This document shows positions 13,186-17,422 of a stretch of DNA of 64,000 bases, piece by piece; position 1 is the first letter of the stretch, and each line of letters starts with the position of its first letter. The position numbers were made by a program, and so were the translations under genes. The notes under the pieces were generated by a model. The model was not told the origin of the DNA and searched no databases. It was given only the letters and a program-made list of their open reading frames with translations. This DNA comes from Candidatus Yanofskybacteria bacterium (GTDB taxonomy: Bacteria > Patescibacteriota > Minisyncoccia > 2-02-FULL-40-12 > IGHO2-01-FULL-4-A): assembly GCA_016181175.1 (NCBI GenBank), contig JACOZV010000001.1:182185-246184 (forward strand), read 5' to 3'.

Positions 13186-13254
13186 CCCGTTAGAGGTCTC
13201 GCTCGCGACATAGTCGCGAGTCCGAAGGACCTTGGCGGGGCTACCTCTAACGGG
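13186..13254. repeat. 69-nt palindromic repeat element, family 1, intergenic copy
   Basis: cccgttagaGgtctcgctcgcgacATAgtcgcgagtccgaaggaccttggcggggctacCtctaacggg. 12-bp terminal inverted repeat plus an inner 8-bp hairpin. Confidence 0.8.
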
Positions 13255-13980
13255 ATGGATTCAATTTTTGCAAAACTATTTTTATCCTTTGCTTCAATTT
13301 TGGGGGTCATTTCTGCACCGTCTTATATTCAATTAAGCACGGCCAGTGTTGTTTTTGATTACCAAACCGGGGATGGCAGGCCGCTTTACTATTTTAACCT
13401 CAAAAACATTGGGTCGCAAAAAGAAAGATTTGATGTTTCAGTAAATGTTCCTTGGATTTTTATTTCGCGCGAGGGTTACGACAATGTAACTTCTCTTTAT
13501 CTTGAAAGTGAAGGTGCTGTAAATTTTACACTTGATGTAAGACCGGAGATGGTGTCCGACGGCTCTTATATTGCCGAGATTTCAATTAAGGCAGTGGATG
13601 TCTATGATTATTCAGTCATAGAAACAAAGACGATTAATGTAACATTCAACAAAAATTTTGTTGCTACTCCCGTGCCTTCTGAAACTGTGACTCCAGCACT
13701 TTCAGTAACCCCGGCTTTATTAGTTTCTCCAGTTGTTTCGTTGACCCCGACCACGGTTCCTGCATTATCCAGTTCACCGTTATTTTCTCCGACCCCGAAG
13801 CTCTCACCCTCCGAAACTTCTCCGAAAATTTCTCCAATATCAACAACCAGTCCGCCCATTCAATTACGCAGTGCGGTTACACCTGTCCCAAGTCCTTCGG
13901 CAAGTTTACAGCCCAAAACTAGTCGGGCAATCTTGCCATTTATATCATTTTGGCAGTTCCTGAGAAATTTAATTTTCTAA
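13255..13980 (+). CDS. secreted protein with a Pro/Ser/Thr-rich C-terminus (start moved to the internal Met)
   Basis: The track ORF 13180..13980 begins inside the palindromic repeat. The Met at 13255 gives a signal-peptide-like N-terminus ('MDSIFAKLFLSFASILGVISAPS'). The C-terminus is 'PVPSETVTPALSVTP...' linker-like. Confidence 0.4.
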   Translation: MDSIFAKLFLSFASILGVISAPSYIQLSTASVVFDYQTGDGRPLYYFNLKNIGSQKERFDVSVNVPWIFISREGYDNVTSLYLESEGAVNFTLDVRPEMVSDGSYIAEISIKAVDVYDYSVIETKTINVTFNKNFVATPVPSETVTPALSVTPALLVSPVVSLTPTTVPALSSSPLFSPTPKLSPSETSPKISPISTTSPPIQLRSAVTPVPSPSASLQPKTSRAILPFISFWQFLRNLIF

Positions 13981-15830: not shown

Positions 15831-15832
15831 AA

Positions 15833-17422
15833 ATGACACAATATACCAAAATCTTTGTCGCCGCCGCCGTTCTTTTATCGGCCGTTTTTCTTATCCCGTT
15901 TTTTAGCGCTCAAAATTTCAGTCCCTCCAGCGATGAGATAGCCCATTTGCCCAGCGGCTATTCTTATTGGAAAACAGGAGATGTTGTTTTGAATCCCCAA
16001 CACCCGCCCCTGGTCAAATTATTGGCGTCTTTCCCTTTATTATTCCTGAATTTAAAATTTGATAAAAACGATAGCAACTTAGCAGGTCCTTCCGTAAATG
16101 AATGGCAATTTGGCAAAAATTTCTTATTCGGGAATGACACCGACAAGCTTCTTTTACTTGGGCGAATTGTTCCGATTCTGATATCGGTCTTGCTCGGATT
16201 TTATATTTTCAAGTGGGCTTCGGAAATGTTCAGTCGAAAGGCCGGCACCACGTCGTTGTTTATCTACGCATTTATGCCCAATATTATTGCCCATGCCCAA
16301 TTCGTGACTACTGATGTGGCGGTGGCAGCTTTTTCTTTTATAACCCTTTACTATCTTTGGAAGCTGTTTAAAACCGGCAGTAAAAAATTCATTATTCATG
16401 TTGGCATTAGTTTGGGTTTGGCTTTGGGTTCAAAATTTTCCGGCGTTTTACTTATTCCCATAGTTGCCTTTTTACTTTTTGTTTATGCACGCAAAAATGC
16501 GGGCGATTATTTTTTTAAAACGAGGAGATTTTTTATTTATTCTATTTTAATCGGGGCGATTGGATTTTTGGTAATCTGGATTATTTATCTGTTCCCAACC
16601 GGTCTAGACTTTTATTTAAAAGGATTCCGCTCTGTTTATTCTGACATTTCAGCCAATTATTATTACTATCTTAACGGCAATTTTTCTCGTGACGGCTGGT
16701 GGTATTATTTTATATTTGCTTTCTTTGTAAAAACACCGATCCCGGCTTTAATTGCTTTTGCTTTATCTCTTGCGTTTTATAAAAAGTACAAATTGACCTT
16801 ACTGGAAAAACAGATCATATTTATTCCGGTAGTTGTTTTTCTGTTAGCTACTATTTGGAAAGCAGGAAATATAGGAGTGAGATATATTCTTCCGATATAT
16901 CCATTTCTGATCCTTTACGCCGGGGGTTTGGCCCTCCCGTTAGAAGTCTCGCTCGCGACCCTGTCGCGAGTCCGAAGGACCTTGGCGGGGCTACTTCTAA
17001 CGGGATTAGCTGGCTGGTACATTTTTTCAGCGGTTAGGATTTATCCTGATTACCTGGCTTACTTTAATGAATTTGTCGGCGGGTCGGCTAATGGGTATAA
17101 ATATCTTGATGATTCCAATATTGAATGGGGACAAGACTTAAAGCGTTTGGGGGCTTATCAAATTCGGCATCCGGAAACGAAAATACTTTATTCTTGGAGG
17201 AAATCTGACCCCGGTTATTACGGCATAGAAAACGATTTGTTTTCAGAAGGCATAAAGAAGCGATGGCTGTCGGAGCCTTCGGGTCGATACGCGGTCAACA
17301 CGCATTTCTTGGTGCGGTTAAAACTTGAAGGTTCCATGACGCCTGACAAATACCTTAATTGGCTGGACTTATATAAACCGGTTGATAGGATTGGCTATTC
17401 TTTCCTTGTCTACGAATTTTAG
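15833..17422 (+). CDS. GT-C fold membrane glycosyltransferase, PMT/ArnT-like (GT39/83)
   Basis: Periplasmic-loop 'SSDEIAHLPSGYSYWKTGD' (the DE motif of PMT/ArnT enzymes) with more than 10 TM helices. It carries an in-frame copy of the 69-nt palindromic repeat at 16936..17004. Confidence 0.55.
   Translation: MTQYTKIFVAAAVLLSAVFLIPFFSAQNFSPSSDEIAHLPSGYSYWKTGDVVLNPQHPPLVKLLASFPLLFLNLKFDKNDSNLAGPSVNEWQFGKNFLFGNDTDKLLLLGRIVPILISVLLGFYIFKWASEMFSRKAGTTSLFIYAFMPNIIAHAQFVTTDVAVAAFSFITLYYLWKLFKTGSKKFIIHVGISLGLALGSKFSGVLLIPIVAFLLFVYARKNAGDYFFKTRRFFIYSILIGAIGFLVIWIIYLFPTGLDFYLKGFRSVYSDISANYYYYLNGNFSRDGWWYYFIFAFFVKTPIPALIAFALSLAFYKKYKLTLLEKQIIFIPVVVFLLATIWKAGNIGVRYILPIYPFLILYAGGLALPLEVSLATLSRVRRTLAGLLLTGLAGWYIFSAVRIYPDYLAYFNEFVGGSANGYKYLDDSNIEWGQDLKRLGAYQIRHPETKILYSWRKSDPGYYGIENDLFSEGIKKRWLSEPSGRYAVNTHFLVRLKLEGSMTPDKYLNWLDLYKPVDRIGYSFLVYEF
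16936..17004. repeat. 69-nt palindromic repeat element, family 1, in-frame copy inside the GT-C gene
   Basis: Same element with a compensatory pair (aGaAgt / acTtct) and a different inner loop (CCT). 23 codons, with no stop in the host frame. Confidence 0.8.

Follow-up and report, generated by a model that had tools for sequence, protein, structure and literature searches.

What is the same palindrome doing both in front of one gene and inside another? The question is raised by a 64,000-nucleotide stretch of a Candidatus Yanofskybacteria genome (contig JACOZV010000001.1, positions 182,185 to 246,184; "the window" below means this whole stretch), in which a 69-nt repeat, here called type A, stands once just upstream of a gene and once within the reading frame of a glycosyltransferase gene. 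We conclude that the repeat is a real hairpin-forming miniature mobile element of the ultra-small bacteria of the Candidate Phyla Radiation (CPR), or Patescibacteria. Our preferred explanation, to which we give a probability of roughly 0.7, is that type A is a non-autonomous derivative of a family of nuclease-encoding elements that target start codons. The two copies and their surroundings are as follows, in window positions.

13181-13184, forward strand: left TGGA duplicate of copy 1, which with A13180 gives an upstream ATG
13186-13254, forward strand: type A copy 1 (CCCG...CGGG), with a terminal T at 13185 and a terminal A at 13255
13256-13259, forward strand: right TGGA duplicate of copy 1; A13255 plus its TG is the rebuilt host start codon
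13255-13980, forward strand: host gene of copy 1, 241 aa, with a signal-peptide-like N-terminus
15833-17422, forward strand: host gene of copy 2, a GT-C or family 39 glycosyltransferase (GT39; PMT_2, PMT)
16936-17004, forward strand: type A copy 2, with a terminal T at 16935 and a terminal A at 17005, inside the GT39 gene

Copy 1 lies after the stop of the open reading frame (ORF) at 12543-13178 and before the true start of the next gene, whose 241-aa product matched no Pfam family. A first-pass annotation of the window, made from the letters of the sequence, had placed both copies correctly but had called them identical, whereas they are equal at 64 of 69 positions (67 of 72, or 93%, in a longer alignment). 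Its finer description is borne out. Both copies do have the 12-bp terminal inverted repeat (CCCGTTAGAGGT/ACCTCTAACGGG) and, inside it, the 8-bp hairpin (CTCGCGAC/GTCGCGAG), and the five differences are a G-to-A change at position 10, a compensating C-to-T change at its partner, position 60, and an inner hairpin loop that reads ATA in one copy and CCT in the other. The assignment of the copy 2 host to the GT-C glycosyltransferases also holds, as a match to the GT39/PMT_2 family. Each half of the element has only these two matches in the 64-kb window, with none expected from 100 shuffles, and as the G+C content of the window is only about 40%, type A forms a GC-rich island. In the GT39 frame copy 2 is translated as PLEVSLATLSRVRRTLAGLLLTG; the peptides predicted across the element or its junctions are TLAGLLLTGLAGWYIFSAVR, DPVRGLARDIVASPK and DLGGATSNGMDSIFAK.

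Both copies fold far more stably than shuffled sequences, with a predicted free energy of -40 to -44 kcal/mol as RNA (z -3.9 to -5.1) and -24 to -26 as DNA (z -6 to -7). The predicted fold consists of an outer stem of 12-14 bp (P1), a 5-bp stem (P2, CUCGC/GCGGG), a variable hairpin (P3) and another, small one (P4, GUCC-GAA-GGAC), and arms of 12-14 bp are present in every copy. An exact-word scan of 185,579 species genomes returned six loci, all in Patescibacteria (Yanofskybacteria, Saccharibacteria and unclassified members), and a corresponding metagenome scan returned 22 contigs with type A. Together with later copies found through their arms, there are 24 distinct copies, and their sequence conservation across phyla is very high.

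Twenty-two of the 24 copies were placed in a fold alignment (A1), whose structure was drafted from a single-sequence fold. Within it 98.3% of cells are paired, against 33-50% after the partners are slid by one to three columns, and 40 cells show double changes, against 13.8 +/- 3.0 in shuffles; the three-way junction was predicted independently by RNAalifold from A1. The compensatory position noticed in the window pair is A:U in 12 sequences and G:C in 10, and P3 varies freely in sequence and length while its pairing is kept. Copies that were recovered by other means than the search word show compensatory changes in P2 (CTAGC/GCTAG, CCTGC/GCAGG). In A1, P4 and the strand that joins it to P2 are invariant, but this does not count as evidence, because the search word forces it. 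On the gene-sense strand there are 30 G.U pairs against 5 A.C mismatches (13 against 5 when one dominant column is left out), a modest hint that it is the sense strand that folds, as RNA or as single-stranded DNA; the selected fold could act at either level.

The usual habitat of type A is the start codon of genes, not the interior of ORFs. With all copies oriented alike, 19 of the 24 have an ATG directly at the right junction. In 17 of these the ATG begins a reading frame that either reaches 60 aa or more or continues past the end of the locus, and in one more it begins the L36 gene of 37 aa. No relation links the genes that lie downstream (L36, an L9-like gene, glycosyltransferases of GT2- and GT4-like type, a CsoR-like repressor and numerous membrane proteins). 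On the upstream side the flank is mostly ATGAA or ATGGA followed by T, its fourth base equalling that of the downstream ATG, and in copy 1 and locus L014 ATGGA stands on both sides. These matched flanks indicate a 4-bp target-site duplication if the element is taken as T-CCCG...CGGG-A (C...G in some copies). The duplicate is TGGA in copy 1, TGAA in many start-codon copies and TTGA in L023, and across the family it follows the pattern T-G/T-N-A/G (TGAA, TGGA, TTTA, TTGA). The ATG after the element thus arises from the terminal A and the duplicated TG. With its duplication the insert measures 75 nt in type A, and 54 and 120 nt in two related forms (types B and C, below), all multiples of three, so that the reading frame is kept.

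An upstream ATG or GTG is retained in 13 start-codon copies. In nine of them it is open and in frame with the gene; three of the other four run into a stop inside the element (at codon 11, 12 or 25), and one GTG copy is open and out of frame. The upstream ATG has become ATT in L003 and L004, and in L003 the upstream frame would not reach the gene anyway, since that copy is 73 nt long. For copy 1, the start at 13180 had been dismissed as spurious. It need not be: it belongs to the left target duplicate, and its frame runs open through the element into the host gene (75 nt, or 25 codons, without a stop).

Empty sites are supplied by two syntenic relatives recovered through the GT39 protein, L029 (80% identical) and L031 (79%). 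In both, the orthologue of the copy 1 host gene begins at the aligned ATG. The copy 1 site is empty in L029, which has the stop, a 13-nt spacer and the ATG. The same site in L031 reads TCCCGTTAGAGCC-aaa-ATG...264 nt...GGCTCTAACGGG-ATGA: the arms are the same, and the GIY-YIG ORF of 88 aa between them has a TGA that shares bases with the host ATG. L031 also has a type A copy before a gene that lacks one in the window and in L029; these empty alleles hold TGAAT at codons 2-3. Landing on a start codon and rebuilding it probably explains why the elements are tolerated in and next to genes.

The long form in L031 belongs to a wider family with the arms (T)CCCGTTAGA...TCTAACGGG(A), which vary in a covarying manner (TTAG/CTAA, TACG/CGTA, AACG/CGTA) and enclose several different interiors: one of 45-48 nt (type B), one of 111-114 nt (type C), a 69-nt interior different from that of type A, and a nuclease ORF of about 278 nt. 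A simple scan of 314 kb found 34 distinct inverted-repeat elements bounded by CCCG...CGGG, against 0-1 per shuffle. Among the long members, of about 278-280 bp, the sole ORF between the arms encodes a GIY-YIG nuclease of 86-95 aa, similar to UPF0213 and Slx1. The arms and the ORF were checked at the DNA level in four contexts (L031, L032, L040 and L050), including these two.

L031 3082-3359 (JACPNJ010000005.1): arm-bounded GIY-YIG gene, 88 aa, at the orthologous site of copy 1
L050 2501-2788, same contig: second arm-bounded GIY-YIG gene, with covarying arms and no ATG of its own

The nuclease matches the GIY-YIG family of Pfam (PF01541, E = 1.2e-16) and is a bare catalytic domain. Its nearest solved structures are the UPF0213 proteins 1zg2 and 1ywl (BH0048, EF2693), followed by the structure-specific endonuclease SLX1, and against TIGR01453, the model for group I intron endonucleases, it scores 23 bits where the cut-off is 56. 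A total of 1,647 relatives match the L031 protein at E <= 1e-5, and the termini were surveyed in the best 120 of these. In 108 of the 120 the protein ends in (L/R)TG*, the product of reading the right arm CTAACGGGA in frame up to the TGA that follows. In 28 it begins with an MNPVR-like sequence, which is the flanking ATGAA plus the left arm TCCCGTTAGA; 16 of these 28 have no internal Met, so that their sole ATG is supplied by the flank. Each exact nuclease sequence was found in one genomic context only. Several arm-bounded GIY-YIG proteins (P0129, P0142, P0144, P0194, P0236) are labelled "excinuclease ABC subunit C" in the public annotation of several CPR MAGs, likely a misannotation for proteins of 86-88 aa. 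The type A interior RVRRTLAGLLLTG and the 3' end of the nuclease (RLRRFLALTG) are suggestively alike by eye, and we do not claim homology.

The window holds three further members of the family.

14453-14500, forward strand: type B, 48 nt, with arms CCCGAATGAG.../...CTCGTACGGG, in frame in the TPR-glycosyltransferase ORF at 13950-15830
41763-41876, forward strand: type C, 114 nt, from the stop of an ABC-2 permease gene (40904-41761) to the ATGAAT start of an ABC ATPase gene at 41877
58520-58567, forward strand: type B, 48 nt, in frame (PERGREGTQRASASYG) in the ORF at 57809-59089, with TTGA at 58515-58518 and 58569-58572

The first of these can be compared with an empty site. With its TTTA duplicates at 14448-14451 and 14502-14505 it amounts to 54 nt, and exactly the 18 aa that it encodes (IPNETARARSVPLSRTGF) are missing from the three orthologues in L029, L030 and L031. 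The DNA reads ...TTA TTTA [T CCCG...CGGG A] TTTA TCTCC, against ...TTATTTATTTCC at the empty site, which makes it a clean insertion with duplication. Elements also enter each other. A miniature is nested in a nuclease gene at the native sequence ACGG/TGGA/TTTACGG, preserved in L050, which implies a duplication of 4 bp, or of 5 bp if the terminal T is counted as target. A nuclease element in L050 directly follows the regenerated ATGAA of another element, in tandem, and the type A copy at L009 2881-3017 (the same as in L010) is broken by a nested 78-nt element with the same arms.

A number of observations accompany these elements. The type C element has an AT-rich interior, in the ORF listing the ATPase ORF runs back across the element as far as a TTG at 41670, and similar elements of 110-112 nt occur in L004, L006, L020 and L023. 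The three AACG-type elements of the window (14453, 41763, 58520) have in common an A.A mismatch at arm position 5 (CCCGAACGA vs TCGTACGGG). A row of four genes for membrane glycosyltransferases, three carrying TPR repeats at the C-terminus and the fourth being GT39, occupies 13950-20946; this array is syntenic in L029 and L031 and hosts three of the five elements in the window. In the TPR-glycosyltransferase orthologue of L030, positions 944-982 are a perfect GC-rich palindrome of 39 nt (CCCGCCCCACTTGGCGGTCGGACCGCCAAGTGGGGCGGG), in frame, with a net gain of 6 aa (RPAPLGGRTAKWGG) that the window, L029 and L031 do not have; it probably belongs to another element family. Elements of 157-253 nt with long perfect inverted repeats and a CCCG start are found in L014 (2791-3043 and 4113-4269) and L006 (3580-3759). 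Their arm sequences differ from those of the present family (e.g. CCCGTCTAAGTTTTTAGAC...), and they may represent further families in CPR genomes that resemble transposable elements of the miniature inverted-repeat kind (MITEs).

Taken together, these observations suggest a mechanism, in which the part played by the nuclease and the route of translation are inferred. The nuclease would be what moves every member, its likely substrate being the hairpin or cruciform into which the arms fold. Insertion duplicates 4 bp, and surviving insertions are mostly those in the TGAA or TGGA of ATGAA or ATGGA starts, in the sense orientation. The left duplicate retains the host ATG and its ribosome-loading context, and the terminal A and the right duplicate make up a new ATG for the host gene. 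In the long form, the nuclease ORF often begins at the borrowed host ATG (MNPVR...) or a few codons later, and its end in ...LTG-TGA, the TGA overlapping the rebuilt ATG (ATGA), could allow the host gene to be restarted by translational coupling. In the miniatures that are free of stops in the ATG-AAT-CCC frame, ribosomes would read through and unwind a hairpin that would otherwise bury the rebuilt AUG. Ribosomes loaded at the upstream ATG might then produce a 25-aa N-terminal extension or re-initiate at the rebuilt ATG. Copy 1 is a start-codon insertion of this type, and the ATG at 13180 may be functional. Copy 2 is an older copy read in a second open frame, its basic-then-hydrophobic peptide replacing the native loop and transmembrane segment. 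Insertions within genes would presumably be mostly lost, with the survivors (copy 2 and the two type B elements) in loops or membrane-proximal segments. Arm pairing may also hide the region just 5' of the nuclease ORF, recalling IS10 and IS50, in which fold-back inhibits translation of the transposase.

Copy 2 departs from simple insertion. It had been read as adding 23 codons with the frame intact; the frame is indeed intact, but the net gain is only about 7 codons, as about 17 native codons stand there in element-free orthologues. In an alignment of 24 GT39 orthologues the element peptide is found in the window protein, P0002 (82%), P0009 (61%), P0010 (59%) and P0016 (60%), and is missing from P0003-P0007 (75-80%) and from most of the others. 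The segment is thus absent from close orthologues, but it is not a simple 23-residue insertion: element-free proteins have 17-21 native residues at this point, which include a conserved Trp, a loop of basic character and the beginning of a transmembrane helix. A GT39 tree built without the segment scatters the carriers beside non-carriers. That some distant orthologues do share the segment had been named in advance as the mark of ordinary coding sequence, but the resemblance to that outcome is superficial, since identity in the element DNA is about 91% where the host proteins reach only about 59%; copy 2 and the element of L018, whose host gene is P0010-like, disagree at 6 of 69 positions. The GT39 copy in L030 is decayed, its stem pairs broken and its frame kept, which indicates that it evolves as translated coding sequence. 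The loop that hosts copy 2 is a hot spot of insertion and deletion (columns ~405-470 of alignment A2), and P0044, P0033 and P0050 have unrelated insertions of 10-30 aa there.

Several points weigh against our preferred explanation, beginning with copy 2. Its 24 codons substitute for native ones, the five carriers all agree in where the element begins and ends, and a target duplication cannot be seen, so that allele exchange, gene conversion or a homing-like process is needed and simple transposition is insufficient. At two start-codon sites, too, the flanks differ from the empty alleles by more than the duplication; together with the copy 2 boundaries, this speaks for recombination or gene conversion more than for a simple insertion. 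No GIY-YIG gene lies within the 64-kb window. We know of no precedent for an 88-aa protein with only a catalytic domain acting as a transposase, and the nuclease could equally be cargo or a homing nuclease. The covariation in the outer arms could reflect co-evolving protein-binding ends and not pairing, and selection for a function in the host, not recent mobility, could have kept type A nearly identical across phyla. Type A is also low in copy number, with two copies in the window and few per locus. Its N-terminal translation appears in only seven proteins of the public set, from a composite peptide search with 31 candidates and seven hits that makes a weak census; an exhaustive HMMER search with the 32-aa frame-2 peptide gave no hits, the query being too short to inform.

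The alternative that survives these data best, although we consider it unlikely, is movement by homing and not by transposition. A free-standing GIY-YIG endonuclease would cut empty alleles, repair would copy the element with its neighbouring sequence, and the 69-nt forms would be ORF-less remnants kept at cut sites. GIY-YIG enzymes are classical homing endonucleases, and this explanation would account for GT39 alleles with the same element boundaries scattered beside element-free sisters, for the near-identity of the element between diverged hosts, for the flanks replaced beside copy 2, in the copy 1 spacer and at the L031 N-terminus, and for the orthologous site that is empty, type A or nuclease-bearing in three relatives. 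It sits poorly with the many unrelated downstream genes, which have no common target beyond about 4-5 bp, with clean 4-bp duplications whose flanks are otherwise unchanged, and with the nested and tandem insertions. The 88-aa protein has no DNA-binding domain of the I-TevI kind, and the flanks of window copy 2 (W2), L018 and L030 show no co-conversion signal.

That the repeat is a cis-acting RNA of the host, a structure in the 5' untranslated region at the AUG that controls translation or stability or is processed, and that it is not mobile at all, we regard as improbable. The constant sense orientation and the contact with the AUG in 19 of 24 copies would be natural for such an RNA, as would the strong covariation that extends to the internal P2 and P3, the excess of G.U over A.C on the sense strand (30 vs 5; 13 vs 5) and the very high conservation across phyla. 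AUG adjacency, though, follows automatically from the terminal A and the duplicated TG, the downstream genes are functionally unrelated, and no Rfam family matches even at E = 10. Nor does a regulatory RNA account for presence and absence between close relatives with target duplications, for in-frame copies within ORFs, or for a nuclease gene enclosed by the same arms.

Less probable again is removal at the RNA level, in which the element would be an intervening sequence cut by RNase III or a mini-intron, leaving the host protein without extra residues. A terminal stem of 12-14 bp does enclose every member of the family, and the non-intron GIY-YIG inserts in CPR rRNA genes could be elements of the same kind (PMC11270868). 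Cutting by RNase III would sever the mRNA, with no evident route to ligation; the decayed copy in L030, which loses stem pairs and retains its frame, points to translation; and lengths in multiples of three would be needless in a sequence that is excised. Finally, one might see in the GT39 segment just ordinary, conserved coding sequence, and in the intergenic copy a fragment that is paralogous or due to chance. The peptide common to P0001, P0002, P0009, P0010 and P0016 might suggest this view, but it is effectively refuted by the conserved native segment in orthologues at 75-80% identity, the scatter of carriers in the tree, the conservation of synonymous positions in DNA that forms a covarying hairpin, and the same 69 nt upstream of about 19 unrelated genes.

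We tentatively suggest, at somewhat less than even odds, that the family represents a new class: a minimal CPR element with a single nuclease of about 88 aa within hairpin-forming repeats, which parasitises start codons and whose frame-neutral miniatures are occasionally exapted, as in GT39. We consider as new the GIY-YIG partner, the regeneration of the start codon, the borrowing of the host ATG and the near-identity across CPR phyla. Our literature search, incomplete in coverage so that an earlier description is possible, found none of these features described and nothing linking GIY-YIG nucleases, inverted repeats and MITE-like elements in CPR; what comes nearest in print are the GIY-YIG ORFs in non-intron inserts of CPR rRNA genes (PMC11270868). 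With about 280 bp and a lone nuclease of 88 aa, such elements would rank with the smallest self-contained mobile elements known, and would be to our knowledge the first prokaryotic inverted-repeat family tied to a GIY-YIG enzyme and not to a DDE, HUH, serine or tyrosine transposase. Start-codon landing, rebuilding and frame neutrality would explain how selfish DNA persists in the gene-dense, reduced genomes of CPR. For annotation, gene callers systematically place wrong starts in neighbouring genes or extend them (MNPVR... N-termini), and they label the nuclease "excinuclease ABC subunit C". In-frame peptide insertions arise in surface glycosyltransferases, and the GIY-YIG insertions in CPR rRNA genes that are not introns may be due to this family.

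Several other identities were considered and set aside. Rfam models, including those for hammerhead, twister, pistol, hatchet and hepatitis delta virus-like ribozymes, gave no hits in the window at the gathering score, and a permissive scan around copy 1 gave only chance-level hits (E >= 0.78); a tRNA and tmRNA scan found none. The element is reminiscent of a hammerhead (GAGUCCG..GGAC), but the CUGAUGA and GAAAC cores are missing. Integron attC sites have the core order 5'-RYYYAAC (R'') ... GTTRRRY (R')-3', which is reversed in the element, 5'-GTTAGAG...CTCTAAC-3' on both strands. Neither copy has a consensus site for an intrinsic terminator or a promoter, and the hairpin is followed by ATG, not by a T-run. 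A conserved leader peptide (MNPVRGLARD...) is incompatible with the in-frame stops or frame-breaking lengths of several copies. Viral contigs gave no matches to the type A core or the 3' end of the nuclease form, and thus no sign of a phage vector.

How, then, does the family compare with known systems? Among systems with GIY-YIG enzymes, the homing endonucleases (I-TevI, T4 Seg) and the UPF0213/Slx1 proteins share that domain with the long form only, and the patchy distribution at one site in GT39 orthologues is reminiscent of homing. The GT39 site would pass for a single cognate target, but about 19 other sites lie at unrelated genes. The protein here, at 86-95 aa, is the catalytic domain alone, without the DNA-binding domain of I-TevI, and the elements differ further in their inverted-repeat ends, duplications and ORF-less miniatures. 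Elsewhere, rRNA intervening sequences are bounded by a long stem. In CPR rRNA genes, GIY-YIG ORFs occur in inserts that are not group I or II introns (PMC11270868). These inserts resemble the present family in bacterial group, in protein family and in having forms with or without the ORF; they differ in that they lie in rRNA genes, whereas the elements here are in or next to protein-coding genes.

The GC clusters and "byp" elements of yeast mitochondria are likewise GC-rich hairpins in an AT-rich compact genome, occurring in coding regions with short flanking repeats. They belong to eukaryotic organelles, and ribosomes bypass byps, whereas there is no evidence of bypassing here.

Structurally the miniatures qualify as MITEs, known in bacteria from Correia, ERIC and Nezha. 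Like these, the miniatures are small, non-coding and repeated, with two type A and three related copies in the window, though at low copy number. Every copy has terminal inverted repeats and forms a stable hairpin, and the miniatures are present or absent between relatives. A short duplication can be seen against the empty site for type B (TTTA), the nested element (TGGA) and copy 1 (TGGA), but not for copy 2. The termini are those of a longer protein-coding element, as the arms enclose the GIY-YIG ORF in L031, L032, L040 and L050; that ORF is only a putative transposase, and the window has no such element. The known MITEs go back to insertion sequences whose transposases are of the DDE type or similar, whereas only an 86-95 aa GIY-YIG protein is found here, and type A further differs in its low copy number per genome, its near-identity across phyla and its rebuilding of the host start codon. 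A 2024 review of MITEs makes no mention of GIY-YIG, homing or start codons.

Repetitive extragenic palindromic (REP) sequences have GTAG or CGTC tags and lie outside genes, and their REP-associated tyrosine transposases (RAYTs) are of the HUH (Y1) type (PMC3733652, PMC3116915). The present family resembles REP/REPIN-RAYT systems in its short, GC-rich, dispersed palindromes and in a small single-domain nuclease gene flanked by the same arms in inverted orientation. Its termini are (T)CCCG...CGGG(A), copies lie within ORFs and on start codons, and the flanked gene is a GIY-YIG nuclease (PF01541) and not an HUH (Y1) enzyme.

Rickettsia palindromic elements (RPEs), with which the first-pass annotation had compared the repeat, are small palindromic repeats that stand in frame in unrelated protein genes and add a conserved peptide (PMC10969869). 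The core of that comparison, a structure-selected palindromic mobile element that enters coding sequence, is supported by the copies in many CPR genomes, the covariation, the empty sites, the duplications and the lack of the segment in close GT39 orthologues. As with RPEs, unrelated genes are entered in frame (GT39 by type A, two ORFs by type B, and nuclease genes by nested elements), and the host genome is reduced and gene-dense, as in Rickettsia. RPEs, compared here by description only, are about 150 bp long, confined to Rickettsia and without a known partner enzyme, whereas type A has 69 nt, is found in Patescibacteria, shows clear 4-bp duplications, sits mostly at start codons and has termini in common with a nuclease element. 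In function the family behaves like RPEs and other bacterial MITEs that fuse in frame with genes; its architecture recalls that of REPIN/RAYT systems.

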